64,000 nucleotides of DNA from Nitrospiria bacterium (GCA_036397255.1 DASWJH010000053.1:12772-76771); one strand, 5' to 3'; shown: positions 17,631 to 45,059, counted from the stretch's first letter. Made by a program: numbers and translations. Notes: a model not told the origin generated them from the sequence alone.

Positions 17631-17640
17631 GCGCCGGTTC

Positions 17641-19953: not shown

Positions 19954-21162
19954 ATGTCAGATTTTCACCAAACCGGTCCCATCGCAACGCTCCATCGACT
20001 CGGAAAACCTAATTTGGAGCGTTTGGAAATGGAATTAACCACTTTTTCAAAACAATGCCCTATCGGTCTGGTCCTTCCCTGTTTATTTTCGGAACTGCAG
20101 GGGGAAGCCCTTCCCGGAATTATCCGTGAGTTGAAAAATGTTCCCTACCTCCGGGAAATTGTGGTTTCTCTGGATGGGGCCGATGAAAAAGAGTTTGACC
20201 ATGGAAAGAACTTTTTTGGCGAACTGCCTCAAAAAGTAACCGTGATTTGGAACAACGGCCCCAGAATGCAAGCGCTATTAGAGCTTCTTAAAAACAACGA
20301 GGTTGAGATCGGACAGCCGGGGAAAGGAAGATCATGTTGGTTGTCCTATGGGTATATCCTTGCCCGAGGGGATTGCCAGGTCATTGCGCAACATGACTGT
20401 GATATTATCACTTACCAAAGAGAAATCTTGGCCCGTTTATGCTATCCGGCTGTGGCCCCTTCATTTCGATATGAATATTGTAAGGGTTATTATGCCCGGG
20501 TGACGGAACGCCTTCATGGCAGAGTGACCCGCCTCTTTATAACCCCCCTCATTCGTACGCTTCAAAAGTTCCTGGGTCAGATTCCTCTCCTAACTTTTTT
20601 AGACAGTTTTCGTTATCCTCTGTCAGGGGAATTCTCCATGGTGGTGGACTTGGCGCAAATTAATCGAGTCCCAGGGGACTGGGGTTTAGAAATTGGTACA
20701 CTGGCAGAAACCTATCGGAATTGTGCCCATCGGCGAATATGCCAAACCGAGTTGTGTGATGCTTATGAACATAAACACCAAATTCTTTCCCCGGAAGATC
20801 CCCAAAAGGGCCTCATGAAAATGTCAACGGATATTGCAAAATCCCTTTTCAGGAATTTGGCTATTGAGGGGGTGATCCTGGATGAAGGGCTATTTAAAAA
20901 CCTTGGCATTGCATACCTCCGATCGGCACAGGACACCATTAAAAAATACGAAGATGATGCGGCCATCAACAGTTTTTATTTTGACCGGCATGAAGAACGT
21001 TTGGCGGTGGAGGCTTTTACCCGAGCCATTAAATCGGCGGGGGAAGAGTATCTTGCGGACCCTGTTGGTGTTCCTTTAATTTCAAACTGGGTTCGACCCA
21101 CCTCGGCAATTCCAAACTTTTTCGAGAGACTCCTAAAGGCTGTCAAAAAAGATAATGGTTAA
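19954..21162 (+). CDS. Glucosyl-/mannosyl-3-phosphoglycerate synthase-like retaining glycosyltransferase (GT81/GpgS-MpgS family)
   Basis: Motifs align by eye to mycobacterial GpgS: IGLVLPCLFSE resembles VVLPALNEE, VVSLDGADEKE resembles VLDSGSTDDTE, and PGKGRSCW....DCDI resembles PGKGEALW....DSDL. The start is placed at ATG 19954 behind a GGGAGG RBS. The ORF track starts it 30 nt earlier. Confidence 0.7.
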   Translation: MSDFHQTGPIATLHRLGKPNLERLEMELTTFSKQCPIGLVLPCLFSELQGEALPGIIRELKNVPYLREIVVSLDGADEKEFDHGKNFFGELPQKVTVIWNNGPRMQALLELLKNNEVEIGQPGKGRSCWLSYGYILARGDCQVIAQHDCDIITYQREILARLCYPAVAPSFRYEYCKGYYARVTERLHGRVTRLFITPLIRTLQKFLGQIPLLTFLDSFRYPLSGEFSMVVDLAQINRVPGDWGLEIGTLAETYRNCAHRRICQTELCDAYEHKHQILSPEDPQKGLMKMSTDIAKSLFRNLAIEGVILDEGLFKNLGIAYLRSAQDTIKKYEDDAAINSFYFDRHEERLAVEAFTRAIKSAGEEYLADPVGVPLISNWVRPTSAIPNFFERLLKAVKKDNG

Positions 21163-21177
21163 GGGGCGTCGATAACC

Positions 21178-22461
21178 ATGGCAGATGGAGTTGTCCTCCG
21201 GGAGGATCTACAGGCAAAGATAAAAGAAATCGGTTCTGCTGACATTCTCATTGGTGTTCCCAGCTACAATAATTCGAAAACCATTGGACATGTTATTCAT
21301 GCTGTGAGTGCAGGAGTTGCAAAATATTTTCCGGAAGCCAAAGCGGTATTAATTAATTCTGATGGCGGATCCGTGGATGGAACCCCAAAAATTGCAGCCG
21401 ATTCCAGTTTTGATCTTCAAAGCATATTTGTTTCGCATCGACTCAATACCCTTCAGAGAATTTCAACCCCTTACCACGGTATACCCGGAAAGGGGAGCGC
21501 CTTCCGCTTGATCTTTGAAGTGGCTAAGGCCCTTGGAGTGAAAGCCTGCGCGGTGGTTGATTCTGATTTAAGGAGTATCACACCGGAATGGATTGAGTTA
21601 TTAATTAGTCCAATTCTACGGAAAGGATATGAATATGTGGCCCCTTATTATCTCAGACATAAATATGACGGAACCATCACCAATAGTATCATTTATCCAT
21701 TGAGCCGAGCACTGTATGGTAAACGGATTCGACAACCGATCGGAGGAGAATTTGGATTTACGGGGGATTTGGCTGAATATTTTCTCACGAAAGATGTTTG
21801 GGGTACAGATGTTGCGAGATTTGGAATCGATATTTGGATGACCACGACTGCCATTACCCGGGGAAGCAAAATCTGTCAGGTTTATTTAGGTGCAAAAATC
21901 CATGATCCAAAGGATCCCGGTGCTGACCTCTCCTCCATGTTGGTTCAGGTGATCGGCTCGGCCTTGAGTCTGATGGAGGAGCATGCGTCTCTTTGGAAAG
22001 GTGTCCATAGGTCCGAATCCGTACCCCTATTTGGTTTTCAGTATGATGTGGGTTTGGAACCTGTGAATGTGAGTGTGGAGCGAATGTTAAAAGCGTTTCA
22101 TCTGGGGTTAAATGAATTTTCACCCATGTGGGAGGGGGTTTTGTCTGAGGCGGTTTTGGGTGATTTGAAAAAATTGAAACCGAATGAATCCACTTTTCAT
22201 ATTCCCGATCCCGTTTGGGTCCGTGTGATTTACGATGTTGCTTTGGCTGCCCACCGACAAACCATGCCCAGGGAACATTTACTTAAATCCTTGACCCCCC
22301 TTTATTTGGGAAGGGTTGCCTCCTTTATCTTAGAAATTCAAAGGAGTCACCACCGAGAGGTTGAAGAAAAAATTGAAAGTTTGTGCCAGGCGTTTGAAAA
22401 AGATAAAGCCTATTTGGTGAACCAATGGGAACCTACCAATGATTTTGGAGAGAAAACATGA
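21178..22461 (+). CDS. GT-A fold glycosyltransferase, GpgS-like paralog (copy A of the duplicated module)
   Basis: ILIGVPSYNN...LINSDGGSVDGT and YHGIPGKGSAF...VVDSDL motifs. Strongly similar along its whole length to the 56123..57391 product. Confidence 0.7.
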   Translation: MADGVVLREDLQAKIKEIGSADILIGVPSYNNSKTIGHVIHAVSAGVAKYFPEAKAVLINSDGGSVDGTPKIAADSSFDLQSIFVSHRLNTLQRISTPYHGIPGKGSAFRLIFEVAKALGVKACAVVDSDLRSITPEWIELLISPILRKGYEYVAPYYLRHKYDGTITNSIIYPLSRALYGKRIRQPIGGEFGFTGDLAEYFLTKDVWGTDVARFGIDIWMTTTAITRGSKICQVYLGAKIHDPKDPGADLSSMLVQVIGSALSLMEEHASLWKGVHRSESVPLFGFQYDVGLEPVNVSVERMLKAFHLGLNEFSPMWEGVLSEAVLGDLKKLKPNESTFHIPDPVWVRVIYDVALAAHRQTMPREHLLKSLTPLYLGRVASFILEIQRSHHREVEEKIESLCQAFEKDKAYLVNQWEPTNDFGEKT

Positions 22462-23162
22462 AAGACCTTTGGCAAACGGCCTTCCTAGGGCCCATGGAAG
22501 AATTTTTTAAACAGGTTGGGGCTTTTATTCCTCATCTATTGGTCATGTTAATCATCATCGCAATCGGTTTCGGGGTTGCTTGGGGAATCCAAACAGTTAT
22601 TTCCCGGTTATTAGAAGTCATTCGTTTTGACCGGTTTAGTTTCCGATTGGGTTTTTCCCAAGCCCTGAGTAAGGGGGGAATTAAGGAACACCCCTCTCAT
22701 CTCATCAGCCGCTTAGTGTATTGGGTCATTTTCCTGGCTTTCGTGATGTTGGGTTTGGATGCTTTGAACCTCAATGCCATAAATCAGTTGGTGTCAAAAA
22801 CCTTGTCCTACCTTCCCCATCTTTTGGTGGCCTTGATTATTTTATCGGTTGGGATCATTTTAGGTAACTTTTTTGGCCAGGCCATTTTAATTGCTGCGGT
22901 AAATGCCCAGATTTCTCAGGCGAGGTTTTTGGCCCTTGGGGTCCGGTTAGGGATTATTTTATTTTCCCTGGCAATGGCCTTGGTTCAATTAGGAATTGCA
23001 ACGACTATCATAGTTGCGGCTTTTTCTATTTCTTTTGGCGGGGTGGTTTTGGCTTTGGCCATTGCCTTTGGACTCGGGGCCAAAGAGACGGCTAAGGCGA
23101 TCATTGAAAAGCGGATTAAAAAAGAGGAAGAACCCAAAGAAGAAGAACTTTCACATCTTTAA
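22458..23162 (+). CDS. Polytopic membrane protein of the MscS N-terminal 'conserved TM helix' type that lacks the MscS beta-domain; lysine/glutamate-rich C-terminal tail (copy A)
   Basis: 234 aa with about 5 TM helices. The start overlaps the stop of the upstream glycosyltransferase gene in an ATGA arrangement. Paralogous to 57388..58092, and its N-terminal region is paralogous to the MscS-like gene at 60215. The tail ...AFGLGAKETAKAIIEKRIKKEEEPKEEELSHL is conserved in the paralog. Confidence 0.65.
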   Translation: MKDLWQTAFLGPMEEFFKQVGAFIPHLLVMLIIIAIGFGVAWGIQTVISRLLEVIRFDRFSFRLGFSQALSKGGIKEHPSHLISRLVYWVIFLAFVMLGLDALNLNAINQLVSKTLSYLPHLLVALIILSVGIILGNFFGQAILIAAVNAQISQARFLALGVRLGIILFSLAMALVQLGIATTIIVAAFSISFGGVVLALAIAFGLGAKETAKAIIEKRIKKEEEPKEEELSHL

Positions 23163-23165
23163 CGT

Positions 23166-24698
23166 TTATCCTCTCCCATAGCATTTGGTCATTTCAGATA
23201 GTTTTTGAATTAATGGGCGGTTTAAACTGCCCGGTTTTAGTCTCCATTCCCAATTTCCTTTTGAAGTAGCGGGGCGGTTCATTCGCCCTTCATCCCCTAG
23301 GCCTAATATATCCTGCATGGGGAATATGGTTGTATTGGCAACGGACATCATCAATAACCGGATCAATTCCCAGTGGATTTCCTTCCTCGGTGTTCCTCCC
23401 CGAAACCCTATATACTGAAGCGTCTTCTGACGTTCCTCTCGAATTTCCTCCGGTTTGCGGGTCGAATAATCTACTTTTCCAAAAAGCCAGCTCATTAAGG
23501 TATCATTATCATGGGTTCCTGTATAAGCAACACAATTTTTTACAAAATGGGAAGGTTTGTAAAAATCGGCAAGGGGGTCATTCCCAAACGCAAATTGCAG
23601 AATTCTCATTCCCGGAAGTTCAAACCGATCCCTGAGTTCATGAACCTCAGCGGTTATGACTCCCAGATCCTCCGCAATAAAGGGAAGGTATGGGAAATGT
23701 TTTAAAAGGGCATTGAAAAAACGCTCTCCCGGTCCTTTCATCCATTGTCCGTTTACCGCCGTTTTTTCCCCCGCAGGCACCTCCCAATAATCAATGAATC
23801 CTTTGAAATGGTCTAAACGGACCACTTCAAATAATGAAAAGTTGTGTCTGACCCGCTGAACCCACCAATCATATCCTCTTTTCTCCAAAATATCCCACCG
23901 ATAAATGGGATTATTCCATAATTGGCCCGTGTCGCTAAAGAAATCAGGAGGGATTCCTGCTACGGCTAGAGGTTTCTTTTGTGAGTCGAGTTTGAACACC
24001 TCTGGATGGGACCAAACATCCGCGCTATGGTATTGTACATAAATGGGGAGGTCTCCGATTATCTGAATATTTCTTTTATTGGCGTATTGCCGAAGGGCAC
24101 TCCATTGCATGAAAAAAAGATATTGGATCCATTTTTCCTTTTCGATTTCATTATGTAGTTTTTCCCGCCAACTTTTTAAAGCGGATACCCGACGGTCCCT
24201 CATTTCAGGAGGCCATTGATGCAACACCTTCCTGCCCGTTTGGGAAGCAAAGGCAGCGAAAAACGCAAAAGGTTCCAGCCAAATGCTTTGTTCCTCACAA
24301 AATCTTAAAAACTCATAATCGGTTTTCAACCGGCTATAAAATTTCCAGAAGGTTTTTTCCAGTATTTTATTTTTATATTCGGTAACGGAAAAGTAATCCA
24401 CGGCATGATTTGGAAAATGGGGAATGGGTTGGATATCCGTTTGGGAAATAAACCCATCTTTAACCAATTGTTGTGGGCTGATCATCAGAGGGTTTCCCGC
24501 AAACGCCGAGTGGCTGCTGTACGGGGAACTTCCAAAAGCGGTTGATGTTGGGTTTAATGGAAGGATTTGCCAGTAACTCTGCTTGGATTGTGCTAAAAAG
24601 TCGATGAATTGGAATGCGCTGGGTCCCAGATCTCCGATTCCAAAAGGGGTGGGGAGGGAGGTAATATGGAGCAGAATACCGCTTGTCCTCCGCATCAT
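23166..24698 (-). CDS. malQ: 4-alpha-glucanotransferase (amylomaltase, GH77)
   Basis: N-terminus MMRRTSGILLHITSLPTPFGIGDLG is typical of MalQ. The start is set at the ATG at 24698, which overlaps the treY stop in an ATGA arrangement. The ORF-track start at 24851 adds 51 non-conserved residues. Confidence 0.85.
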   Translation of the reverse strand: MMRRTSGILLHITSLPTPFGIGDLGPSAFQFIDFLAQSKQSYWQILPLNPTSTAFGSSPYSSHSAFAGNPLMISPQQLVKDGFISQTDIQPIPHFPNHAVDYFSVTEYKNKILEKTFWKFYSRLKTDYEFLRFCEEQSIWLEPFAFFAAFASQTGRKVLHQWPPEMRDRRVSALKSWREKLHNEIEKEKWIQYLFFMQWSALRQYANKRNIQIIGDLPIYVQYHSADVWSHPEVFKLDSQKKPLAVAGIPPDFFSDTGQLWNNPIYRWDILEKRGYDWWVQRVRHNFSLFEVVRLDHFKGFIDYWEVPAGEKTAVNGQWMKGPGERFFNALLKHFPYLPFIAEDLGVITAEVHELRDRFELPGMRILQFAFGNDPLADFYKPSHFVKNCVAYTGTHDNDTLMSWLFGKVDYSTRKPEEIREERQKTLQYIGFRGGTPRKEIHWELIRLLMMSVANTTIFPMQDILGLGDEGRMNRPATSKGNWEWRLKPGSLNRPLIQKLSEMTKCYGRG

Positions 24699-27457
24699 TT
24701 CTTTTCCTCCCCAACCAAAAGGGAGACTGGAAAATATTTTAGAATATCGCAGACCTTGAGGTGTTTCCCTGTTCGGTGTTGTTGACCTGTCATTGCATCC
24801 GCCCATTGAGAAGGAGCTCCGGCAGGAAGCACCAGGGTGGTATTTCCCCAAAGGCTATCTCCATGGGGTAGCTCTCCTTCCTGGATTAATCCCGCCAAAA
24901 AACGCGGGACGATGGTTAGGGTCCAAACCGACCCCTGATTTCGGGCAAAAGCGATCACCTGCTCCTTTAAATGGCCCTTTGGCTCAATGGGATGATAGGT
25001 CCCAAATGTAAAACACTCCCTGAGAGTTTTTCTCATTTGAAGCGCTTGATAGATGGTATACAATTTTATTCCCCCATCAGACCGTGTGGACCAAAGTTCC
25101 TTGAGGCATTTCAGTCGATCTTCTTGGGTAGGGTGAAGCATTTCTGAAAGGCGGTGAGTTCGAGTTTCATAATCAACGGAACGCCGGTTATCTGGATCCA
25201 CTAGGCTCAAATCCCAAAGTTCTGTTCCCTGGTAAAAATCCGGAATTCCAGGGGAGGTGATTTTAATCAGGGTTTGGGATAAAGAATTGAGCATTCCAAA
25301 AAAAGCGACTTTCTTTTGAAACGGTTTAAAATCTTCGAAGAAGGATTTGGACCCCACGATTCTTTCCACAAATTCGGTGAGGGCTTTCTCATAGGTTGTT
25401 TGGGGATCGATCCAATTGGTGTAAACCTTCCCCTCCCGCCCTGCCTTGATCATATAGTTTTTAACCCGCTCGGTCCATTGGAGGTCCAAACCTTCCTGGA
25501 AAGGGTAGGTACCCATCATCGTTTGATACAGAAAATATTCTTCATTTTTTCCAGGGACCATTTTCCCTTTTACTTTTAATTTTTTGTTCCGATTGAGTTG
25601 GTGCCAATAGAAAATCTTTTTATTCCATTCATCTGGGATTTCAGAAAGAACATTAATTCTTGCTCGGACATCTTCTCCTCTTTTGGTATCATGGGTGGCA
25701 GAAGCGCTCATGGTATGGGGCCATTGGGTTTCCCGGGACCGGTTAAACTGATGCCATTCCTTCATGGAGGTTCCGAAGTGGGCTGGAACTCCCCCCACTT
25801 CATTGAGAGAAAGAAGGCGGTTGTATACATAAAGGGTGGTGTCCTCATGCCCTTTCGCCATTAAAGGGCCCGTATACTGCTGCAAACGCATTCCAAAATT
25901 TACCCTTTGTTCTTTGTTTTCCTTTTCAAAGCCTTTTCGTTTTTTTCCATCCAGCACCTGGTGTAAAAGGGTCAGATCCTTTTTAAGTTTCGGGTTTCTC
26001 TGTTTGGCTGCCTCAATGGCCTGTTTAATATAAACCCGATCGGTTGGATGAACCCCTTTCTGATCACCATAGGTTCGATAGACCGGAAAGCAGGCAATGA
26101 ACTCAGTGATGGTTTTTTTCAAGTTTTTGAGGGGAACTGTTTTTTGAAAAGGATGGCCTTTTAAAATATTCTGGAACACCCGTGAGAGGTTTTCCATATC
26201 TCCGTTCATGTCAGACCGCATAATGAGGTGCTTGTTTTGATAAAGCAGGTCAACCGGAGTCTTTTTCTGACGGGTGAATTTTTGGTATAAACCTTGAAAA
26301 GGTTCTGCATTTTTGCCCATGCAAAAAAGACCATTTAAAACGTTTAAAAATTCATAGCCGGTGGTCCCTTGAATGGGCCAGGTTTTGGGAAGTTTTTCTT
26401 TCCGTTCCAAGATTTTTTCAACCACCAAATACCTTTCCCCTATCTTTTTCCTTAATTGCATCAAATAGGCGGCGGGGTCAAAGAGGCCATCAATGTGATC
26501 GACCCTGATTCCGGAAAATTTCCCTTCCCGGCAAAGTCTAAAAATTAACCCGTGGCTATAGTTAAAAACCTCTTCATATTCCACCCTCAATGAAATCAAC
26601 TCATTCACGGCAAAAAACCGTCGGAAATTGATTTTCTGGGTGGCGCGTTTCCAAAAATCCAGTTTGAAGATTTGTTTAGACATCAGCTGATCCAAAAAAT
26701 GCTTTTGGTTTTTTGCATTGATCCAGTCTACCGTTTTATCTAAGAACTCATGAATCTCTGAATGGGTTTGGTAGAGTTTCCAAAGTTGGGATTTCAAATC
26801 TTGGATTTTATCCTTTTGGAGAGGAATATGTTTCATTGCCTCCAGGATTTTCAAAAGATAATGGGGTTCTGGATTTCCTTCCCCCAATTTCTTTTTCATC
26901 ATGGAGAGTGCTTTTTGTAACACCTGATTATATGAATCAAAATATAAAGGAAAACACAATGAATAGTAATTAATGTTAAATCCATTTTCGCTATAACCGA
27001 TGCGAATTTCGCCCGCTCTCAGGGCTTCCGGGTAGGGTTTTCCCAAAAAAGGGCAAAGAAGGCGACCGGAGAGATCTTGGTTAGGGTGATCCCAATCAAT
27101 ATCCAGGAATAAAAGATAAGGGGAGTCTTTTCCCGTTTCAAAAAGATCCATGAGGATGGGATTATTTCCATCAAAAGCCATATGATTGGGAACAATGTCT
27201 TGGATCCAACCCATTTGATTTTCATGTATGGTTTGAATCAGGCGTTCAAAGTCCTTTTCCGTTCCTAATTCGGGATTGATTTTCCTCGGATCCACCACAT
27301 CATACCCGTGTTGACTTCCCTTCCGGGCCTCAAAAATGGGGGAGGCATACAGATGGGAAATACCTAAATCTCCTAGATAAGGGACCAATTTTTTTGCGGA
27401 TTCAAATCCGAATTCAGGGGTGAATTGAATGCGATAGGTGGATATAGGGATTTCCAT
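24695..27457 (-). CDS. treY: Malto-oligosyltrehalose synthase (GH13)
   Basis: 920 aa. N-terminal TYRIQF...GISHLYASPIFEA and VPNHMA match the TreY/GH13 fold. Confidence 0.85.
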   Translation of the reverse strand: MEIPISTYRIQFTPEFGFESAKKLVPYLGDLGISHLYASPIFEARKGSQHGYDVVDPRKINPELGTEKDFERLIQTIHENQMGWIQDIVPNHMAFDGNNPILMDLFETGKDSPYLLFLDIDWDHPNQDLSGRLLCPFLGKPYPEALRAGEIRIGYSENGFNINYYSLCFPLYFDSYNQVLQKALSMMKKKLGEGNPEPHYLLKILEAMKHIPLQKDKIQDLKSQLWKLYQTHSEIHEFLDKTVDWINAKNQKHFLDQLMSKQIFKLDFWKRATQKINFRRFFAVNELISLRVEYEEVFNYSHGLIFRLCREGKFSGIRVDHIDGLFDPAAYLMQLRKKIGERYLVVEKILERKEKLPKTWPIQGTTGYEFLNVLNGLFCMGKNAEPFQGLYQKFTRQKKTPVDLLYQNKHLIMRSDMNGDMENLSRVFQNILKGHPFQKTVPLKNLKKTITEFIACFPVYRTYGDQKGVHPTDRVYIKQAIEAAKQRNPKLKKDLTLLHQVLDGKKRKGFEKENKEQRVNFGMRLQQYTGPLMAKGHEDTTLYVYNRLLSLNEVGGVPAHFGTSMKEWHQFNRSRETQWPHTMSASATHDTKRGEDVRARINVLSEIPDEWNKKIFYWHQLNRNKKLKVKGKMVPGKNEEYFLYQTMMGTYPFQEGLDLQWTERVKNYMIKAGREGKVYTNWIDPQTTYEKALTEFVERIVGSKSFFEDFKPFQKKVAFFGMLNSLSQTLIKITSPGIPDFYQGTELWDLSLVDPDNRRSVDYETRTHRLSEMLHPTQEDRLKCLKELWSTRSDGGIKLYTIYQALQMRKTLRECFTFGTYHPIEPKGHLKEQVIAFARNQGSVWTLTIVPRFLAGLIQEGELPHGDSLWGNTTLVLPAGAPSQWADAMTGQQHRTGKHLKVCDILKYFPVSLLVGEEKK

Positions 27458-27506
27458 TGCTCTGTATAAGGGTCCTTTCCCCTAAGTGGGTTGGGTGGTG
27501 GGAGGC

Positions 27507-29312: not shown

Positions 29313-29314
29313 CC

Positions 29315-31459
29315 TTAAACCCCCTTTTCTCTTCTTCCGGTTGTAAGATGGAAAACAGCCAAGGATCTGCCTTGAAGGGAATAGGTTCGCCCACCTCGAG
29401 CCATTCCACCCATATCGTGAAGATCTTCAAAGGTGGTATCCAACCTCAAGCTCCACCGGGTTCCTTTTTTGTGTGCGGGCAATACAAAAGGGATGCTTTC
29501 ATGGTGGGCGTTTAAAAGAATAAGGAGGGTTTCCCCAAATATAGGGTTTCCCTTTTTATCCACCTCTCCCATGGCATCCCCCGCCAGCCGCATACCCAAA
29601 CACCGGACAAAGCCAGCATTCCATTCCTCATCATTCATTTCCCGCCCCGTTGGGCCAAACCAGGATATGTCTTTAATTTCGGAACCACGAATATGCCGTC
29701 CCTGGAAAAATTTTCTGCGCCTTAAAACCGGGTTGGCTTTTAAAAATTGAATGACTTTTTTGGTAAACTGAAAGAAATCTTTCTGTTCTTTGGTTAACTC
29801 CCACTGATACCAGCTAATTTCATTATCCTGGCAATAGGCATTATTATTTCCCTGTTGGGTTCGCCCAATTTCATCTCCTCCACTGATCATGGGGGCCCCC
29901 TGGCTAAACAGCAAGGTGGCCATCAGGTTTCTTTTTTGTTTTTCCCTGAGGGCTTTAATTTCGGGATCATCCGTGGGTCCCTCCGTACCACAATTCCAGC
30001 TAACATTATCATCCGTTCCATCCCGATTTTCTTCGCCGTTGGCCTCATTATGTTTGTGGTTATAACTGACCAAATCATGAAGGGTAAACCCATCATGTGC
30101 AGTAATAAAATTAATGCTGGCATGTGGCTTTCGGCCGCTTCCCCCGTATAGATCGGAGCTGCCCGACAACCGCGTAGCCATTTCCGCTACCTGGCGACCA
30201 TCTCCTTTCCAAAAGCTGCGAACTGCATCACGGTATTTCCCATTCCACTCAGTCCACAGAACGGGAAAGTTTCCTACCTGATAGCCCCCTTCTCCCAGGT
30301 CCCAAGGTTCCGCAATGAGTTTAACCTGGGAAATAATCGGATCCTGCTGAATAATATCAAAAAAGGCTCCCAGACGATCGACCTCATGTAATTCCCGGGC
30401 CAATGTGCTGGCCAAATCGAATCGAAATCCGTCAACATGCATTTCCAGAACCCAGTACCGCAAACTGTCCATAATGAGTTGAAGCACTTGAGGTGTAGTC
30501 ATGTTGAGGGTGTTACCACACCCGGTGTAGTCCATATAGAATCTTGAATTGTCATTGACAAGCCGGTAATAGGAGGCATTATCAATTCCCCGAAGAGAAA
30601 GAGTGGGCCCCAGGTGATTTCCTTCTGCGGTATGGTTATAGACCACATCCAAAATCACCTCAATTCCCGCGGTATGTAAGGTCCGAACCATCATTTTAAA
30701 CTCGTCAGCGACTTCCATGGTTCCGGAACCATAACGGTTAACCGGTGCAAGGAAAGCCAGAGAGTTATAACCCCAGTAGTTGCTTAAACCCTGTTTAACC
30801 AGGTAGTGATCATTCACGTAGTGATGAACAGGAAGAAGCTCAACCGCAGTGATTCCTAATTGGGTGAGGTGCTGAATAATGGGCTCTGAGGCCAGTCCCG
30901 CATAGGTTCCCCGCAATTCTGGGGGAACATCGGGATGTTTCATGGTTAACCCTCTCACATGGGTTTCGTAAATGATGGTCTCATGCCATGGGGTTTTAGG
31001 GGGTCGATCGTTCCCCCAGGTAAACGCCGGGTCTACTACGGAACAAAGAGGGGCAAATGGGGCGTTGTCCCGGTCATCTCTTGTGAGATCTTCCTTGGGA
31101 TCCCCTGTTTTGTAACCAAACATGGATTCATCCCAATGGATTCTTCTTGCGATTGCTTTTGCATAGGGGTCTACCAAAACCTTTGAAGGGTTAAACCGGT
31201 GCCCTTGAGAGGGGTCATAGGGGCCGTCTACCCGATACCCATAAATCCATCCAGGGCGTGCTTCAGGAAGGTAGACATGCCACACACGGTTGGTTTGCTC
31301 CATCATTTTAATTCGATGGGCTTCCTTTTTGTCTTCAATAGAATTAAAAATACATAGCTCTACCTGGGTCGCATTTTCGGAGAATAGGGCAAAATTCACC
31401 CCTCGGCCGTCCCATGTTGCGCCTAAGGGATAAGGGTTTCCCGGTATGGTTCTCATCAA
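29315..31459 (-). CDS. glgX: Glycogen debranching enzyme (isoamylase-type, GH13)
   Basis: 714 aa. [18 protein letters not shown]-terminus, [11 protein letters not shown] and GFRFDLA motifs. Confidence 0.85.
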
Positions 31460-31522
31460 AAGGTTCCTTTCGGTTTTTTGCGTTGCAAAAAGGCTGGTGG
31501 GCTCACCCTTTTTGTTCCCCCC

Positions 31523-33499
31523 TTATTTGGAGGAAACATCGGCTTCATATTTAAAAAAGCCAATGCTCAAGGGAGGTAAAACCAAGGGCAAGGAATAAAA
31601 GTGGCCATGAGAGGGAATGGGTGTGGCCTCCAACCCCCCAAAGTTTCCTTGGCCGCTTCCCCAATATTGCTTGGCATCGCTGTTGAGCATTTCTTTCCAA
31701 AATCCAGCCATGGGGACACCAATGCGATAGTTGTTCCGGGGTACGGGGGTAAAATTGCACACCACTAGAATCCGATCTTTAGGGTTTTTCCCTTTTCGCA
31801 GAAAACTGATGATCGAATTCTCCCAATCCTGGCAGTCTACCCACTCAAACCCTTCGCCCTGAAAATCCATTTCATGGAGGGCTGCCTCGTCTTTGTAGAG
31901 GTGGTTTAAATCGCGGACCCACTTTAGAATTCCCTGGTGACTGGAATATTCCAATAGATGCCAGTCCAGGCTGGATTCATGATACCATTCATCCCATTGA
32001 CCGAATTCTCCCCCCATCATTAAAAGTTTCTTGCCAGGGTGGGCAAACATATAACCAAATAACAATCTTAAATTCGCAAACCGCTGCCAATCGTCCCCGG
32101 GCATTTTCCCAAGAATGGACCCTTTGCCATAGACGATTTCGTCATGGGACAAAGGCAGGACAAAATTTTCGGAGAAGGCATAACAGAGACTAAAGGTGAG
32201 CTGATTGTGGTGAAATTTACGGAACACTGAATCCTTGGAGAAATAATCCAATGTATCATGCATCCATCCCATGTTCCATTTGATCCCAAATCCCAGCCCC
32301 CCCACATAAGTGGGCCGGGAGACCATGGGCCACGCGGTGGACTCTTCGGCAAAGGTTTGAACATCCGGAAATTTCTCATAAATGGCTTCATTCATTTTTC
32401 TGAGAAACCCAATGGCTTCAATATTTTCACGTCCACCATATTCATTGGGAATCCAATCCCCGCCTTGGCGGGCGTAATCCAGGTACAGCATGGAAGCCAC
32501 TGCATCTACTCGAATACCATCAATATGGTATTTTTCCAGCCAAAATAGAGCGCTACTAATTAAAAAGGCCCTCACTTCATTGCGGCCATAGTTAAAAATA
32601 TAACTTTTCCAATCCGGATGGAACCCTTTACGGGGGTCGGCATGTTCAAAGAGATGGGTCCCATCAAAATAAACCAATCCATGTTCATCCGAGGGAAAAT
32701 GGGAAGGGACCCAATCCAGGATGAGGCCAATGCCGTTTTGATGCAGGTAATCCACCAAATACATAAAGTCCTGGGGGGTTCCATACCGGCGGGTAGGGGC
32801 GAAATAACCAACCGTTTGATAACCCCAGGATCCATAAAAGGGATGTTCGGTGAGGGGTAAAAATTCAACGTGTGTGAAACCCATGTGTTTAACATATTCC
32901 GCCAAAGAGGGGGCTATTTCCCGATAGGTCAAATAACGGTTTCCTTCTTCGGGCATTCTTTTCCAGGACCCCAGGTGAACTTCATAGATGGACATGGGCG
33001 CACTGAGCTTGTTCACCTCCTGGCGGGAAGACATCCATTGGTGATCTTTCCATTGATACTCAATATCACATACCACGGAACCGGTTTTAGGGGGTTCTTC
33101 CCACCCAAATCCATAGGGGTCTCCCTTATCGACCTGATATCCGTTTTGTTTGGAAACAATGTGGTATTTATATATCTCCCCCGGGCCAATGCTTCCAATA
33201 AACCCTTCCCAAATTCCGGACCCGTCTTTTCGAACGTTCAAGGGATGGGATTGGGGATTCCAGCCGTTAAAATTCCCAATGATGTAAACTTTTTCCGCAT
33301 TGGGCGCCCAAACAGAGAAATAAACACCCTCTATTTCGTCCACCACCATGGGGTGTGACCCAAATTGGTCATATAAGTGGTTGTGGGTTCCCTCTTTAAA
33401 AAGGTAAATATCATATTCCGTAAACCGGCTGACGGGTTGAATCAGCTCAGGCTTAGGGTTGGATTTTTTTCTTGGTGATGTTGGTTGATCTTTACCCAT
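31523..33499 (-). CDS. glgB: 1,4-alpha-glucan branching enzyme (GH13)
   Basis: 658 aa. GWMHDTL and [14 protein letters not shown] motifs are typical of GlgB. Confidence 0.85.
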
Positions 33500-33525
33500 G
33501 TTTCATCCTCTTAATTTAGGAAGGT

Positions 33526-36500
33526 TTAAGGATTGGGAAGCCCGGTGGGATAAGCCCGCTGAATCTCAACAAATAACGAAGCGTTCCCTTGAATATCCAA
33601 GATGGATTTAATACCTTTTAAAGGGGTTAAAACCCAATCCGGGCGGCTGTTCAGTTCATAACTGAGTTCGTAAATGGCTTTATTTAAAAGAAAGGCATTT
33701 AAAAGGACATCCATTTCTTGCAGTTCTTTGGGGAGAAACGGCGCTTCCCCTGCAGTTTCCAAATAGGATTGAAGAAAAACACCTCCCACATACCGATGCC
33801 AAAGCTCGGTCCAAGGCTCCAGTGTAGATTGATCGTCGGGGCGAAGGGAAGTATGGTTTCTTAAAACCGTAAAGGAGGCATAATGAAATGACCTGAGCAT
33901 TCCCGCCACATCCCGTAAGGGGGACTGTTTTAACCGTCGATCGTTCAATGGGCGAGCGGGTTCACCCTCAAAATCAATAATGATAAAATCACCTCCGGTA
34001 TAAAGCACCTGACCCAAATGGTAATCGCCATGGTTACGGATTCTCACACCAGAGCGGTTCTGCTTCAGAACCGCTTTCATCCGCTCCAGAATCTCCGTCT
34101 CACGATTTAAAATTTCTTCCGCATCTTCTTTGGCTTCGTTGGCCAGGTTTTTGAGGTTTTTTCTCAATAGCTGAAGACCTCTTCGTGCTTGGCTTTGCAT
34201 CGATTGATACACCGAGCGCTGATGCAGCATTGTAAACGGCTCCGGATCAAATGCCGGATCTCCCGTTTCGGTAGAAAGGGCCTTATGCATTTCAGCAGTT
34301 CTCTTTCCCAACAAAGAAGCCATTTCCAGATAAACCCCTCCGATGAGTTCCTGAAACACCAAAGGAATTTCCTGATAGGCAATCCCCAAAGGGGACAGTT
34401 TCGGGTCCAGCGAGGCAGGGGGAGGTTCTCCCTTGGCTAAAACCCGTTCAATATATCGTGTGATTTCATCCAAAGTATATTTCCAGGCATCCCCTTGGTT
34501 GGCGACGCATCCTTGGAGTAACCCAAGGGCAATCGGTTCCGCTCCTTTTCGGTGGTATTCCAGGGATCCGGCAAAGGGGGGTGTATTGGAGAAAGAGGTT
34601 TTTTCCGTTAAAAACTGAACCGCTTCCATATCCGGATTGAGTCCCTCTTCTAATCTCCGGAAAAGCTTAAAGTATAACGCGGTACCGAATATGATAGAGG
34701 TGTTACTTTGTTCAGCGCTAAGGAGGTGGGACCCTTCCGCTGGAAGATGAGTGGTATCCACCAAACGGCGAAAGGCTTTTCCCGGATAACCGGTCATTTC
34801 TCCATGTTGTCCTTTATTGCGCAGGCGCTTGGCGATGGTCAAAAACAGGTTTTTTCGGAACCCATCGTCATAGATCCCGTCACGCAAAAATATTTTTCGA
34901 TCCCCCATTTTGAAGGTAGCGATGGCCCCAGGGGGGTTTCCCTTGACTGTTTCCTGTATTTCTTCTTCGGGAATGAAGGAAAGCGCAAGCAAGTAGGTTT
35001 CTGGAAGCCCTTCGGTGTAATGACATTCAATAAAAAGGACCTGTACCAGAGAGGCATCCCGTCCAACCGGAATTTGCTCAACGATTTTCATTTGCTGAAT
35101 GTTTCGGGCTTTTCCCCCAAACCAACGGCAGGCCCGAATATATTGGGGTAAAATCTCCCTTTCTAATTTCCCTTTAGATTTTCCCGAAAGAATTCCTTCC
35201 CACCGTGGAACCAATCCAAGATCCGGAAGGGGTTTTTCTTTCACAATTTTGGAATCTTCGGCTTCCTTATGGAGGTAAAACAGGTAATATCCATACCCTC
35301 CCAGGCTCAAAGAATAAGGGGCGTCTTTGATGATCGGGAACCGGCTTCTTCCAAAAACTTCTTCAGGGATGCACCCCGCACAGGGTGAAATATCCAAGTC
35401 TACCATTTGGGGATGGCGGGAGAGGTTAACCACCACCAGTATTTTCTCGTCTTCATATTTTCGCACAAAGGCTAAGATTTTTGGATTATCGGGAAGAAGG
35501 AAATGTATTTCCCCTCGACCAAACGCCTTGGACTGTTTTCGAATGGCAATCAGTTTTTTCATCCACCATAAAAGAGAAGCCTGATTCCTCTCCTGGTTCT
35601 CCACATTGAGGGACTCAAAGTGATATTCGGGATCAATGATCGTGGGAAGGTAAAGCTTTTGAGGGTTGGCCCTAGAAAAACCCGCATTACGGTCTGAACT
35701 CCATTGCATAGGGGTTCGGACGCCATTTCGATCCCCCAAGTAATGATTGTCCCCCATTCCAATTTCATCCCCATAATAAATGATCGGGGTACCCGGCATG
35801 GTAAAAAGGAGGACATTCAAAAGCTCAATTTTTTTACGATCATTTTCAAGTAAGGGGGCTAGTCTTCGACGAATTCCCATATTAATTCGGGCACTGGGAT
35901 CTCGAGCGTAGACCCGGTACATAAAATCTCTTTCCTCATCGGTGACCATTTCTAAAGTTAATTCATCGTGGTTTCTGAGAAACATTGCCCACTGGCAGGA
36001 TTCGTGAATGGATGGGGTTTGATCCAGAATATCAATGATCGGAAACCGGTCTTCCATTTGAAGGGACATAAACATTCTTGGCATCAAGGGGAAATGAAAT
36101 GACAGGTGACACTCATCCCCTTTTCCAAAATACTCCGCGGCATCTTCAGGCCATTGGTTGGCCTCCGCCAGCAACATCTTGCCTTGAAAGTGGGTATCCA
36201 CATGTTTTCTTAAGGCTTTTAAAAATTCATGGGTCTCGGGTAAGTTTTCGCAATTGGTTCCTTCTCTTTCAAAAAGATAAGGAATGGCATCTAATCGCAT
36301 TCCGTCTACCCCCATATTGAACCAATATTCCATAACCTGAAAGACGGCTTTCTGGACCTCAGGGTTTTCAAAATTTAAATCGGGTTGATGGGAGTAAAAC
36401 CGGTGCCAAAAATTGGCCTTTGCAACATGGTCCCATGTCCAGTTGGAGGTTTCAAAATCCTTGAAAATAATTCTCGCGTCTCTATATTTTTGGGTGGTGT

Positions 36501-36921
36501 TACTCCACACGTAAAAATTTCTTGCGGATGATCCTGGTTTAGCCCGACGGGCCCGTTGAAACCAAGCATGCTGATCCGAGGTATGATTGATCACCAGTTC
36601 GGTGATTACACGAAGACTGCGTCGATGGGCTTCTTTTAAAAATTCCTTAAAATCCCTTAATTCCCCGTAGTTGGGATGAATATTGTAATAATCTGCAATG
36701 TCATATCCATCATCTCTCAGGGGAGAAGGGTAAAAGGGGAGGACCCATACCGCCGTGACTCCGAGGCTTTCCAGATAATCCAATTTCTGGGTCAACCCCT
36801 TAAAATCGCCCATACCATCCCCATTGGCATCATTGAATGCTTTAATATGGGTTTGATAGATAATGGCGTCTTTAAACCAAAGCGGGTCTTCTTCAAAAAA
36901 TGAATTTTTTTTAGGTTTCAT
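33526..36921 (-). CDS. treS: Trehalose synthase fused to maltokinase (TreS-Mak/Pep2 fusion)
   Basis: 1131 aa. The N-terminal ~550 aa form a GH13 trehalose-synthase domain (WFKDAIIYQTH..., GVDGMRLDAIPYL). The C-terminal ~450 aa form a maltokinase-like aminoglycoside-phosphotransferase fold (IRNHGDYHLGQVL). Confidence 0.8.
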   Translation of the reverse strand: MKPKKNSFFEEDPLWFKDAIIYQTHIKAFNDANGDGMGDFKGLTQKLDYLESLGVTAVWVLPFYPSPLRDDGYDIADYYNIHPNYGELRDFKEFLKEAHRRSLRVITELVINHTSDQHAWFQRARRAKPGSSARNFYVWSNTTQKYRDARIIFKDFETSNWTWDHVAKANFWHRFYSHQPDLNFENPEVQKAVFQVMEYWFNMGVDGMRLDAIPYLFEREGTNCENLPETHEFLKALRKHVDTHFQGKMLLAEANQWPEDAAEYFGKGDECHLSFHFPLMPRMFMSLQMEDRFPIIDILDQTPSIHESCQWAMFLRNHDELTLEMVTDEERDFMYRVYARDPSARINMGIRRRLAPLLENDRKKIELLNVLLFTMPGTPIIYYGDEIGMGDNHYLGDRNGVRTPMQWSSDRNAGFSRANPQKLYLPTIIDPEYHFESLNVENQERNQASLLWWMKKLIAIRKQSKAFGRGEIHFLLPDNPKILAFVRKYEDEKILVVVNLSRHPQMVDLDISPCAGCIPEEVFGRSRFPIIKDAPYSLSLGGYGYYLFYLHKEAEDSKIVKEKPLPDLGLVPRWEGILSGKSKGKLEREILPQYIRACRWFGGKARNIQQMKIVEQIPVGRDASLVQVLFIECHYTEGLPETYLLALSFIPEEEIQETVKGNPPGAIATFKMGDRKIFLRDGIYDDGFRKNLFLTIAKRLRNKGQHGEMTGYPGKAFRRLVDTTHLPAEGSHLLSAEQSNTSIIFGTALYFKLFRRLEEGLNPDMEAVQFLTEKTSFSNTPPFAGSLEYHRKGAEPIALGLLQGCVANQGDAWKYTLDEITRYIERVLAKGEPPPASLDPKLSPLGIAYQEIPLVFQELIGGVYLEMASLLGKRTAEMHKALSTETGDPAFDPEPFTMLHQRSVYQSMQSQARRGLQLLRKNLKNLANEAKEDAEEILNRETEILERMKAVLKQNRSGVRIRNHGDYHLGQVLYTGGDFIIIDFEGEPARPLNDRRLKQSPLRDVAGMLRSFHYASFTVLRNHTSLRPDDQSTLEPWTELWHRYVGGVFLQSYLETAGEAPFLPKELQEMDVLLNAFLLNKAIYELSYELNSRPDWVLTPLKGIKSILDIQGNASLFVEIQRAYPTGLPNP

Positions 36922-36930
36922 ATCCCTTTC

Positions 36931-38922
36931 TTACATAAAATAGTCAAAATCGGTTTCTCTTTTTAATTTTGGTTTGAGGCGGAAAATATGGGCGGGGACC
37001 ACATGGGGATTAAGCTGAACAAAATTAAGTTCCCCTTGCCAAATATATTTCTCATCACTTAAAAGATCGTGGACCATATAGGACTGGGAGGAATCAATGC
37101 CCAGTTTCCAGATGGGAACCTTGACCCATCCGGATTGGGTGTGGAAGGGGTCCAGGTTGACAATGACCAATATGATATTGGAAAGGTCCTCGGTGACTTT
37201 TTGATAGGATAGGATCTGATCATTGTCCGTTTCACAAAAGGATAGATTCCACGTGGTCTGCAGAGATTTATTCTCCCTCCGGATTTTGTTGACCCGTGCA
37301 ATAAAATCTTTCAGGTTTCCGGGTTGATCCCAATTCCATGTTTTTATTTCATATTTTTCATTATCCAGATACTCCTCTACTCCAGGCCTGGGTTGGTTTA
37401 GACAAAGCTCAAAGGTTGGCCCGTAAATCCCGTAGTTGGAGGAGAGGGTGGCAGCCAGAACAAGCCTCATTAAAAATGCAGGCCTACCGCCATACTGTAA
37501 ATGCTCTGGGAGGATATCGGGAGTGTTGGGCCAAAAGTTGGGTTTAAAGATTTCCCGGGCTTCCGTTTGGGTGAGTTCCGTTAAATAGGAGGTAAATTCT
37601 TTTTTTGAATTCCTCCATGTAAAATAGGTGTAGGATTGGGTAAAACCAACCTTTGCCAAACGATACATGACCTTTGGGCGGGTAAACGCCTCTGATAAAA
37701 AAATGACTTCCGGGAAATCTTTTTTGATTTCGGAAATCAACCATTGCCAAAAAGGAAACGGCTTGGTATGGGGGTTGTCCACCCGAAATATCCGGACGCC
37801 ATGATCAATCCAAAACAAAACCACATTTTTTAACTCTTCCCAAAGTCCTTTCCAATTTTCCGATTCAAAATTCAGGGGAAGGATATCTTGATATTTCTTG
37901 GGAGGATTTTCCGCATATTGTACCGTTCCATCGGGACGCCACCGGAACCACTCGGGGTTCGATTTGACATAGGGGTGATCAGGTGCACATTGAAAGGCCA
38001 GATCCATTGCAATCTCAATTTGATGGTTTTTGGCCGTTTTAACTAATTGATCAAAGTCTTTCAGTGTCCCTAATTGGGGATGAATCGCCGTATGGCCGCC
38101 TTCATCGGAACCGATGGCCCATGGACTTCCTGGATCATCGGGTGTGGATTCCGTGGAATTATTTTTACCCTTTCGGTTTTTCTTCCCAATGGGGTGAATG
38201 GGAGGAAGGTAAAAAATATCGAACCCCATTTTAGCGATTTCAGGAAGCAATTTTTCACAGTCTTTGAGGGTTCCATGTTTTCCCGGGTCCGGAGTGCAGG
38301 ATCTGGGAAATCGTTCGTACCAGGCGCTAAAGAGGGCTTTTGGAGGCTCCACCATTAAAGCCAGTTCCTTTGGATAACGGGTGGCAAGGTGTCGGTCAGG
38401 ATATTTGTCCGCTAACTCCGATAGTTCCTCCCCGATGGACACGGCAAGGGCTTGGTCGGGATTTCTAATATTTTGAATTTGTCGGGCCAGATGAATCAGT
38501 TTTTTTTGGTCATCCCCGGATGCCCGTTTGGAAGCCTTCTCCACCAGGTCACCCCCGATCTGGAGATCAATCTGGACATCCTGCTTAGCATCCACCCTTT
38601 TTTTAAGATCTCGCTGCCAGGTTTTAAAATGATCCACCCATCCTTCCAAGGTAAACAGGTAAATGCCTACCTCTTCTGCAACGAACTCCCCCTCCCATCG
38701 GTCATTCTCCAGGAACATCATCGGGATTTCGGTCCATGTTCGTTTTCCTTGAGGCCTATAAAGCAGTCGTGCCGTTAGGACATCGTGTCCATCAGCAAAA
38801 ATGTCTGCCGAAACGCATAGGCTTTCCCCAACCGCTCTTTTACAGGGAAATTCCCCTCCATCGATTTCAGGATGGACATGTTCAATAACCACGCGACCCT
38901 TCCCATTTTCTGGTAGTCCCAT
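36931..38922 (-). CDS. glgE: alpha-1,4-glucan:maltose-1-phosphate maltosyltransferase
   Basis: 663 aa. N-terminal DUF3416-like region (IEHVHPEIDGGEFPCKR) followed by a GH13_3 catalytic domain (GVRIFRVDNPHTKP). 10-nt gap to treS-mak. Confidence 0.8.
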   Translation of the reverse strand: MGLPENGKGRVVIEHVHPEIDGGEFPCKRAVGESLCVSADIFADGHDVLTARLLYRPQGKRTWTEIPMMFLENDRWEGEFVAEEVGIYLFTLEGWVDHFKTWQRDLKKRVDAKQDVQIDLQIGGDLVEKASKRASGDDQKKLIHLARQIQNIRNPDQALAVSIGEELSELADKYPDRHLATRYPKELALMVEPPKALFSAWYERFPRSCTPDPGKHGTLKDCEKLLPEIAKMGFDIFYLPPIHPIGKKNRKGKNNSTESTPDDPGSPWAIGSDEGGHTAIHPQLGTLKDFDQLVKTAKNHQIEIAMDLAFQCAPDHPYVKSNPEWFRWRPDGTVQYAENPPKKYQDILPLNFESENWKGLWEELKNVVLFWIDHGVRIFRVDNPHTKPFPFWQWLISEIKKDFPEVIFLSEAFTRPKVMYRLAKVGFTQSYTYFTWRNSKKEFTSYLTELTQTEAREIFKPNFWPNTPDILPEHLQYGGRPAFLMRLVLAATLSSNYGIYGPTFELCLNQPRPGVEEYLDNEKYEIKTWNWDQPGNLKDFIARVNKIRRENKSLQTTWNLSFCETDNDQILSYQKVTEDLSNIILVIVNLDPFHTQSGWVKVPIWKLGIDSSQSYMVHDLLSDEKYIWQGELNFVQLNPHVVPAHIFRLKPKLKRETDFDYFM

Positions 38923-39557: not shown

Positions 39558-40104
39558 TTAAGGTCTAATTTTCTTCCTGGGCAAAGGAGGAGTAGCGGGT
39601 CTCCTTAAGGTTGAGAAAAATCCCCAGCTCCAGTTGACCAAAAGGTAAGAAATAAAAGAAAGGGTGGCTGAGGAGATTAAACTGCCTATCCACAGGGGTT
39701 TTGCAACACGTAAAAAATTTTTGAGGGCTCCGGTTTGACCGAACACCTCCTCCGAAGGTGGCATCCAGTTCAACCACCGGCCCAATTCATATTGCAAAAG
39801 ATAAATTCCCGGGGCGGTCAATGGGTTGGTAACCCAGCAGGCCGCAAGAGCAATGGGAATATTGACCCGTAATAGGAAAGCTCCCAGGCCTGCTAAAATC
39901 ATCTGGACTCCCAACGAGGGTGTAAATGCGATGAATAGACCCAATGCCAGCCCCCCCGGAAACGCTCCTTTGGGTAAACCTCCAAAGTTCGGCTTCAAAT
40001 AGCCTCTCGCCAATGGCCCGGTGAATTAGGGTGCCTTTCAAATGACGCTTCCGTGGAAATTGAAGCAGGAGGTATAAACCCAGTTTTTTAAAACGGTTTT
40101 TCAA
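39558..40104 (-). pseudogene. DUF2062-family membrane protein gene interrupted by a frameshift within a G7 homopolymer (C7 on the plus strand) at about 39952-39958
   Basis: The N-terminal DUF2062 signature (...RAIGERLFEAELWRF.QRSVSGGAGIG) lies in the frame of ORF 39787..40278. The remainder (GLFIAFTPSLGVQMILAGLGAFL...) lies in the frame of ORF 39558..40013. The frame switch coincides with gcccccccgg. Confidence 0.5.
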
Positions 40105-40265
40105 AAAATCCTTAGAAAGAAAACAAAGGCCATTTTCACTTGTGGGTTTATGCCCTTTCGGGTTAATGTAATAATATTTTTTTAAAAACACCCTTATCAT
40201 AAAGGTAATTGTTTCAGTATCCAAGTATAAAGGAAAATGTCCAAGGGAGTTTTTTAAAATGAATG

Positions 40266-41448: not shown

Positions 41449-41494
41449 GAACCCTTTATTTTTTGGGTAGAGAACGTTTGAGGACCTTAATGTA

Positions 41495-45055: not shown

Positions 45056-45059
45056 GGGG

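Follow-up and report, generated by a model that had tools for sequence, protein, structure and literature searches.

Putative sugar-glycerate osmolyte genes with a conserved MscS-type membrane partner beside an alpha-glucan and trehalose gene array in a Nitrospiria bacterium

Making glucosylglycerate and trehalose at the expense of glycogen is an established strategy against stress. In Persephonella marina the genes ggs, gpgS and gpgP reportedly form an operon-like cluster, and the Ggs enzyme of this organism (EC 2.4.1.268) is said to synthesize glucosylglycerate in one step. For the trehalose and alpha-glucan side the closest described system is that of Pseudomonas aeruginosa, where the genes lie in two operons, glgE-treS/pep2-glgB and glgA-treZ-malQ-treY-glgX, and where trehalose guards against osmotic stress and GlgE-derived glucan against desiccation (PMC8084333). 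The subject here is a stretch of 64,000 nucleotides (nt), termed the window, from a metagenome-assembled genome of a Nitrospiria bacterium (GCA_036397255.1, DASWJH010000053.1:12772-76771; GC content about 45%; metagenome contigs that match it reach 130 kb; NCBI records of its proteins are HEX9757552.1 and HEX9757575.1). The window encodes a system of a known kind, in which genes for a sugar-glycerate osmolyte adjoin a cluster for trehalose and alpha-glucan; added to it is a conserved, uncharacterised membrane partner built of MscS-type helices. It is reasonably probable that the locus is an osmoadaptation island, in which a reserve of alpha-glucan is tied to the compatible solutes glucosylglycerate and trehalose.

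Most open reading frames of 100 or more amino acids (aa) in the window were scanned with the Pfam and NCBIfam models. Central to the locus are a GpgS-type gene and two pairs of genes, each consisting of a glycosyltransferase (GT) and a membrane protein (TM):

19954-21162, plus strand: GpgS-like glucosyl-3-phosphoglycerate synthase of the M. burtonii/P. marina type (NF040724, GpgS_Meth)
21178-22461, plus strand: GT_A, 427 aa, putative Ggs/MGS-like retaining GT-A glycosyl-glycerate synthase (PF21969, fold and motifs)
22458-23162, plus strand: TM_A, 234 aa, five predicted membrane helices, MscS-type helices only (PF05552, E = 1.7e-11, two stretches)
56123-57391, plus strand: GT_B, 422 aa, divergent lineage-specific paralog of GT_A (50% identical)
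57388-58092, plus strand: TM_B, 234 aa, paralog of TM_A (PF05552, E = 8e-9)

The first three genes form a plus-strand operon that converges on a minus-strand array of glucan genes. By models and names, the likeness to the P. marina cluster lies in a GpgS of the same type with a Ggs-like GT-A enzyme adjoining it. The locus differs in that the GT is followed by an MscS-type protein, the GT-TM pair is duplicated, and glucan and trehalose genes lie around it. The P. marina cluster also has a HAD-type GpgP, as do 33 of the 80 related loci described below, but this window does not. To our knowledge, the published accounts of P. marina mention no MscS-type membrane protein after Ggs.

An initial reading made from the sequence alone (the sequence-only reading) had placed three GpgS-like paralogs beside a mycobacterial-style GlgE pathway and had taken the locus as one for glucosylglycerate-primed, specialised alpha-glucan. 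Family scans agree with it on the presence and position of the GlgE array, the three glycosyltransferases and glgP; they thus confirm what was observed, and its interpretation is partly supported. The 234-aa membrane gene after GT_A and GT_B had been overlooked. Most of the finding is ordinary annotation that corrects the mycobacterial analogy, and its useful residue is the two-gene GT-TM module.

The GpgS-type enzyme and the Ggs-like glycosyltransferases

The GpgS-like protein has 402 aa when read from position 19954, and another ATG at 19924 would give 412 aa. It is a clear sequence homolog of NF040724, under the equivalog threshold (350 bits, E = 1.7e-104; residues 13-410 align with positions 2-398 of the 402 of the model). 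With PRK13915, the model for actinobacterial GpgS (CAZy GT81), it gives 53 bits (cut-off 262). It has no Pfam match and a remote match to the structures of GT81 GpgS. Its motifs are HDCD (a DXD motif), GRVT and PLSGE; HDxD is present in all 47 orthologs and GRVT in 43 of the 47. The label given to this exact protein by the Joint Genome Institute (JGI) is glucosyl-3-phosphoglycerate synthase.

For all three glycosyltransferases in the window the best NCBIfam match is a GpgS model and each lies below the cut-off; for GT_A and GT_B the model is PRK13915 (56 and 35 bits, respectively). GT_A and GT_B align with the GpgS-like protein over 180 aa only, with 26% identity, and a profile-profile comparison of the GT family with it by hhalign shows 24% identity (probability 93%, E = 3e-7). 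At this level of identity the window appears to have one GpgS and two Ggs/MGS-like enzymes of a distinct, remotely related family, not three GpgS-like paralogs. The assignment of all three to glycerate-glycosylating enzymes holds, considering the fold neighbours of GT_A and a conserved Thr (see below); their description as three GpgS-like paralogs does not.

Mycobacterial GpgS (GT81, Rv1208) is remotely homologous to all three window enzymes, and the first step, formation of glucosyl-3-phosphoglycerate, is probably common to both systems. The locus is set apart from the mycobacterial system for methylglucose lipopolysaccharide (MGLP) by PRK13915 scores of 35–56 bits, by a Nitrospiria host with its GC content of ~45%, and by MGLP genes not being found in the window scans. 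The term “mycobacterial-style” does not fit a GpgS of the M. burtonii/P. marina type that scores below 262 bits with PRK13915, nor a gene set that is also found in P. aeruginosa (PMC8084333).

GT_A and GT_B have weak Pfam matches to MGS_GT (PF21969) and to GT2 (PF00535). With PF21969, whose cut-off is 27 bits, GT_A lies above it (30.1 bits) and GT_B below it (21.3 bits). A search of PDB with the single GT_A sequence gave nothing useful; profile and fold searches were informative. The AlphaFold2 model of GT_A (predicted local distance difference test score 85.5) has no membrane segment. When this model was compared with PDB using Foldseek, the top matches were seven chains of the Rhodothermus marinus mannosylglycerate synthase (MgS; CAZy GT78, PDB 2BO4, 2Y4K). 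The alignment runs over ~412 columns and takes in the C-terminal helical domain (E ~3e-14, TM-scores 0.68/0.75). Fold, DXD motif, Ile-Thr site and metal-binding His are common to GT_A and MgS, but the two are only 16%–18% identical. Next in order are mycobacterial GpgS and Rubrobacter MpgS, which match over the GT-A half only, and membrane GT2 synthases appear only at a TM-score of ~0.4. Since all near fold neighbours (MgS, GpgS and MpgS) are glycosyltransferases of glycerate or phosphoglycerate, GT_A does not cluster with GT2 enzymes that do not use glycerate, the outcome that would have told against the sequence-only reading.

Residues of GT_A were placed by profile alignment to GpgS structures, and their roles were taken from the literature (PMC2581804). 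In GpgS of M. tuberculosis, Val186 and Thr187 bind the glycerate carboxylate and His258 binds the metal; the MgS counterparts are Ile138/Thr139 and His217 (PMC2581804). In GT_A the sequence DSD (aa positions 128–130) aligns with the DXD motif, H242 with the metal-binding His, and I167-T168, the end of a DGTIT motif at positions 164–168, with the residue pair for the glycerate carboxylate. All 80 of 80 members of the GT family have DGTIT, where the GpgS-like family has GRVT, and the carboxylate-binding Thr is kept in all three window enzymes. The GT family has Thr in place of the Arg185 of GpgS; in our interpretation this change at the acceptor site fits a non-phosphorylated acceptor. As modeled, GT_A has the fold and the acceptor site seen in enzymes that glycosylate glycerate in a single step. 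Several homologs of GT_A with 61%–73% identity are labeled “glucosylglycerate synthase” by JGI.

GT_B, by sequence, is a fast-evolving, lineage-specific duplicate. It deviates at 52 of the 153 family columns that are conserved at 95% or more. The changes include D130H (DSD becomes DPH), H242Q at the metal ligand, R132F, H161Q, K162P and R214D; DGTIT and PIGGE are retained. Among 5.8 billion clusters, its own fragments aside, no relative was found nearer than the GT_A clade (~51% identity). A conserved subfamily of the GT_B type was sought and none was found, the next relatives being in the GT_A clade. With its altered metal site GT_B may be neofunctionalised, a pseudo-enzyme or an enzyme of reduced activity.

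The MscS-type membrane partner

The start of TM_A overlaps the stop codon of GT_A by 4 nt, and TM_B overlaps GT_B likewise. TM_A and TM_B show 64% identity, and TM_B has diverged far less than GT_B. The only Pfam family found in either is PF05552, which describes a “conserved TM helix” in mechanosensitive channels; TM_A also matches NF033912 (79 bits). The AlphaFold2 model of TM is made entirely of helices, with about five hydrophobic segments. Positions 114–202 of TM correspond to positions 23–111 of Escherichia coli MscS, which form TM1-TM2-TM3a and include the pore helix (profile against PDB, E = 0.007). Foldseek gives a probability of 0.99 for the match to MscS with 31%–33% identity over ~90 columns, but with E-values of 0.7 or more.

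TM1-TM2-TM3a is thus the part that the partner has in common with E. coli MscS. No MscS beta domain (PF00924), TM3b or cytoplasmic alpha-beta vestibule was found in TM_A or TM_B; both stop ~25 residues past the TM3a-like helix. Unlike MscS, the partner has an extra pair of helices at the N-terminus, a conserved C-terminal tail and translational coupling to an enzyme. The family has a uniform length, with the invariant residues N149, G194 and G195, and in about 69 of 73 partners it ends with an acidic stretch followed by a hydrophobic-x-His-hydrophobic C-terminus. The last position is L, I, M, W or F (TM_B ends in VSHF). Given the MscS topology and a segment rich in Lys and Arg behind the last helix, the tail probably lies on the cytoplasmic side, and it looks like a docking peptide.

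The partner may serve as a dedicated valve that releases the solute upon osmotic downshift, or it may sense tension and anchor or regulate the enzyme; the evidence here does not favor one over the other. A channel-type gene beside osmolyte synthesis genes is also a feature of other compatible-solute clusters that contain MscS. As a precedent for a valve, the ectoine cluster of Nitrosopumilus maritimus is said to include an mscS gene. A more specific proposal, speculative and rather doubtful at present, is a complex of the Ggs-like enzyme with its MscS-derived partner that senses membrane tension. In it the partner, reduced to the tension-sensitive MscS helices by loss of the cytoplasmic cage, would dock its acidic tail on the GT, and tension or ionic strength would directly switch synthesis, possibly with venting of the solute through the same protein. 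If true, this would be a direct physical tie between osmosensing and osmolyte synthesis. The GT-TM module is a testable candidate for the coupling of membrane state to osmolyte production or release; no description of it was found among the papers listed by the literature search aimed at it, on glucosylglycerate and mechanosensitive proteins. The identities of GT and TM are correlated across pairs (Pearson r = 0.82), but this was not counted as a sign of interaction, adjacent genes being co-inherited.

A generic GT2 reading would make GT and TM a membrane-associated synthase of a cell-envelope glycoconjugate. Many homologs carry the JGI label “glycosyltransferase involved in cell wall biosynthesis”, the PF00535 match is present if weak, and enzyme and membrane partner are closely coupled. 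This is nevertheless extremely improbable, as the top structural neighbours are all soluble glycosyltransferases of glycerate or phosphoglycerate, the GT itself has no membrane segment, and the partner is an MscS-type helix bundle, i.e. neither a flippase nor a polymerase. The synteny and fusions with GpgS, GpgP and glycerate kinase, given in the next section, also speak against it. The comparison suggests that many proteins labeled as GT2 cell-wall glycosyltransferases in these phyla are better read as sugar-glycerate synthases.

Gene order and fusions in related loci

The GT family has 669 representatives of 50%-identity clusters at E <= 1e-30, and 2,542 at E <= 1e-3. Gene order was counted in the 80 best loci (L005-L084), all from species genomes, out of at least 599 stretches that encode a GT relative. 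The sources of the loci are Nitrospirota, Syntrophorhabdia, Acidobacteriota, Aminicenantes, Gallionellales/Burkholderiales, Ignavibacteria and Calditrichia. The TM gene is found directly downstream of GT and on the same strand in about 77 of the 80 (the exceptions are mostly at contig ends), and the gap between the two genes clusters at −4 and at 15–18 nt. Thus a module of a Ggs-like enzyme and a protein with the membrane domain of MscS only has been kept from Nitrospira to Syntrophorhabdus, Acidobacteriota and Gallionellales. Its carriers include organisms relevant to nitrification under changing salinity.

A GpgS-like gene adjoins GT-TM in 47 of the 80 loci. In 33 loci there is an adjoining HAD-IIB phosphatase of the MPGP family (TIGR01486 246 bits, cut-off 165), which is the archetypal type of GpgP (PMC3240985). 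A glycerate 2-kinase adjoins the module in 14 loci, and TreY/TreZ are directly upstream of it in 15. The genes are most often arranged as GpgS-GT-TM-GpgP (13 loci). In 24 loci one or more genes for alpha-glucan or trehalose lie within 10 kb of GT; the association of the glycosyltransferase with such genes, noted in the sequence-only reading, therefore recurs in other lineages.

Relatives of GT with 30%–33% identity were also looked at: two have the TM partner, one is in a glycerate kinase-GT arrangement without TM, and one is on a contig that is too short. A GT with 33% identity (L086 1-8012, Logan SRR12901004) is part of a one-strand array GT-TM-Mak-GlgX-GlgE, in which Mak is stand-alone. This array suggests that module and GlgE pathway became linked long ago or repeatedly. 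Together with the 24 of 80 loci, it argues that the clustering of GT with glucan and trehalose genes is not due to chance. In one of the 80 loci (L060) a second GT-TM pair adjoins GlgE.

Across the 80 loci, those with TreZ-TreY upstream of GT-TM are mostly without an adjacent GpgS, and vice versa. It appears that the GT-TM core is accompanied either by the genes of the two-step glucosylglycerate route or by those for trehalose.

Natural fusions of GT were found in the forms GpgS-GT, GT-GpgS, GT-Usp-GpgS and GT-TrkA_N (P0243, P0245, P0289, P0271). The GpgS parts are bona fide and of the GT81 type (397–437 bits, cut-off 262). Fusions of this kind are typical of consecutive steps, and with the order GpgS-GT-TM-GpgP being the commonest they would suit a three-step pathway in which GT acts as second glycosyltransferase. 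GT would then form a diglycosyl-glycerate from glucosyl-3-phosphoglycerate or glucosylglycerate, and GpgP would dephosphorylate. Candidate products are glucosylglucosylglycerate (as in P. marina) or mannosylglucosylglycerate (as made by GpgS-MggA-MggB in Petrotoga and Rhodopirellula). Three-step sugar-glycerate pathways do exist (PMC3736172). Such a role is unlikely, however, when the enzyme itself is considered: the Ile-Thr glycerate pair is invariant and sits where MgS and GpgS have theirs, and the whole GT_A fold equals that of MgS, which acts in a single step. In addition, glycerate 2-kinase adjoins not only in the 14 loci but also in a relative with 32% identity that has no GpgS nearby, about one third of the loci have no GpgS within 7–10 kb, and the JGI label of the homologs is that of Ggs. 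One-step synthesis of glucosylglycerate is the role proposed here for GT_A.

Alpha-glucan and trehalose genes, and the surroundings of the locus

Seven genes lie head to tail on the minus strand from 38922 to 23166, with intergenic gaps of −4 to 63 nt; an alpha-glucan phosphorylase gene is found separately:

36931-38922, minus strand: GlgE maltosyltransferase (PF11896 GlgE_dom_N_S, 198 bits; PF21702 GLGE_C, 106 bits)
33526-36921, minus strand: TreS-maltokinase (Pep2) fusion (TIGR02456, 887 bits, cut-off 678; TIGR02457, 516 bits, cut-off 375)
31523-33499, minus strand: GlgB branching enzyme (NF003811, 980 bits, cut-off 741)
29315-31459, minus strand: GlgX glycogen debranching enzyme (TIGR02100, 1057 bits, cut-off 641)
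27507-29312, minus strand: TreZ malto-oligosyltrehalose trehalohydrolase (TIGR02402, 744 bits, cut-off 539)
24695-27457, minus strand: TreY malto-oligosyltrehalose synthase (TIGR02401, 933 bits, cut-off 499)
23166-24698, minus strand: MalQ 4-alpha-glucanotransferase, GH77 (PF02446, 581 bits; NF011080, 684 bits, cut-off 477)
53487-56012, plus strand: alpha-glucan phosphorylase, GlgP-like, TIGR02094 type (TIGR02094, 794 bits, cut-off 192)

The Pfam domains of the TreS-maltokinase fusion are Alpha-amylase, Mak_N_cap and APH, and MalQ is annotated at 510 aa in public contigs. The GlgE pathway is complete in the window (TreS, maltokinase, GlgE and GlgB are all encoded), and TreY and TreZ both exceed their equivalog cut-offs; on these points the model scores agree with the sequence-only reading. 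By family assignment, the seven-gene array interconverts alpha-glucan and trehalose. GlgX, MalQ, TreY and TreZ are the predicted route from glucan to trehalose, and TreS-Mak, GlgE and GlgB that from trehalose to branched glucan.

The enzyme set is common to this locus and the P. aeruginosa network, and TreS is fused to maltokinase in both. The seven genes form one array here in contrast to the two operons of P. aeruginosa, the window is without glgA, and its GlgP gene is 15 kb from the array, where the GT_B-TM_B pair comes directly after it.

In the proposed mechanism, GpgS would form glucosyl-3-phosphoglycerate from nucleoside diphosphate (NDP)-glucose and 3-phosphoglycerate, and a GpgP encoded outside the window would convert it to glucosylglycerate. 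GT_A would make glucosylglycerate from NDP-glucose and D-glycerate in one step. Glucose units released from glucan by GlgP could, via NDP-glucose, feed this synthesis. The TM partner would sit in the membrane with its conserved tail in the cytoplasm, as valve or as tension-sensing anchor or regulator, and GT_B, with its altered metal site, would have a changed or reduced activity. The conserved partners GpgP, glycerate kinase, TreY/TreZ and MscS-like protein, along with surroundings of ion transporters and MscS genes, point to compatible-solute metabolism.

Priming of a specialised alpha-glucan would be a different use of the same genes: glucosylglycerate from three GpgS-like enzymes would serve as primer in the style of MGLP and be elongated by the GlgE pathway. 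It could draw on the position of GT-TM beside alpha-glucan genes in 24 of 80 loci, on the GT-TM-Mak-GlgX-GlgE array of the deep relative, and on the GT-TM pair adjoining GlgE in L060. Scans of the window open reading frames gave no GH57 DggS, polysaccharide methyltransferase, acyltransferase, OctT or histidine-phosphatase GpgP, and none of the more frequent neighbour families of the module in the 80 related loci is of the MGLP type. Since every MGLP-specific component is lacking, the proposal has very little chance of being correct. Moreover, the GpgS is not of the actinobacterial GT81 type, TreY and TreZ, which are the glucan genes found most frequently with the module, degrade glucan to trehalose, and the context is one of ion homeostasis and MscS channels. 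This part of the sequence-only reading is not upheld, the partners conserved beside the module being different ones.

The sole methyltransferase in the window is a TehB-like protein of 173 aa (5963-6484). It was rejected as an MGLP partner, as it is small, lies 14 kb away among unrelated genes, and no methyltransferase family is recurrent next to the module in related loci.

Several points weigh against the osmoadaptation reading as well. The 350 bits of the GpgS-like protein are half of the NF040724 equivalog cut-off of 700. A tblastn query with a GpgP of the MPGP family taken from related loci gave no match in the window, in the flanks of the GpgS-like and GT_A genes (which lie almost wholly inside the window) or in the 10 kb downstream. 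In agreement with this, family scans of the window open reading frames gave no HAD-IIB or histidine-phosphatase match besides the HAD-type domains of P-type ATPases, and the downstream extension showed neither GpgP nor glycerate kinase; that GpgP is not in the window had been said in the sequence-only reading. The two-step route is therefore incomplete as seen. The assignment of GT_A as Ggs is drawn from fold, motifs, synteny and third-party names, and its PIGGE loop, which resembles both the PLGGE of MgS and the PLGGE of M. hassiacum GpgS, does not tell the donor. A fusion of GT and GpgS is no less compatible with successive steps than with parallel routes. Two metal ligands are lost in GT_B, which may be inactive. 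As for the TM partner, its role is one that we purely infer.

Ion transport genes lie on both sides of the main genes, and two P-type cation ATPases are also encoded in the window:

16269-19419, minus strand: NhaA Na+/H+ antiporter (PF06965, 499 bits) and CitMHS transporter with two TrkA_C domains (PF03600, 285 bits, and PF02080)
58188-63206: TerC, putative outer-membrane protein, short MscS-like channel (60215-61042), MgtE_N/CBS protein and MgtE

Just outside the window are two complete MscS genes, an MscS fragment, a Na+/H+ exchanger and a DUF432 gene (L090 11300-21311). The density of osmoregulation genes around 60215-63206 and beyond, in the same L090 segment, is unusually high. The MscS-like protein of 275 aa in the 60215-63206 region consists of TM-helix repeats as in the partner family and a short beta domain. 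Its open reading frame overlaps one that has MgtE_N/CBS only, and a full MgtE is next to it.

Rfam gave zero matches in the window, and promoter-like sites are not more frequent in it than in shuffled sequence. Terminator-like sites show a slight excess only (11, against 7.0 ± 2.6 in shuffled sequence).

A 247-aa open reading frame at 40266-41009 (minus strand) matches mannose-1-phosphate guanylyltransferase (ManC/GMP) at positions 72–220 only, with ~70 N-terminal residues of the domain missing. The region 40000-42000 has a GC content of 38% and few open reading frames, and the ManC-like sequence may be a gene remnant. It was not used as a sign of a mannose donor; the match is partial and no ManC-like gene recurs by the module.

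Two other groups of genes may be mentioned. An acetate kinase gene is directly followed by that for a phosphoketolase (Xfp) at 46286-49870 on the plus strand, and upstream of acetate kinase, on the opposite strand, is a two-component system (43643-45728). At 2489-4522 on the minus strand a two-domain multicopper oxidase-like protein (341 aa) adjoins a multihaem cytochrome c (273 aa); this pair may be a redox module of the NirK type or a related one.

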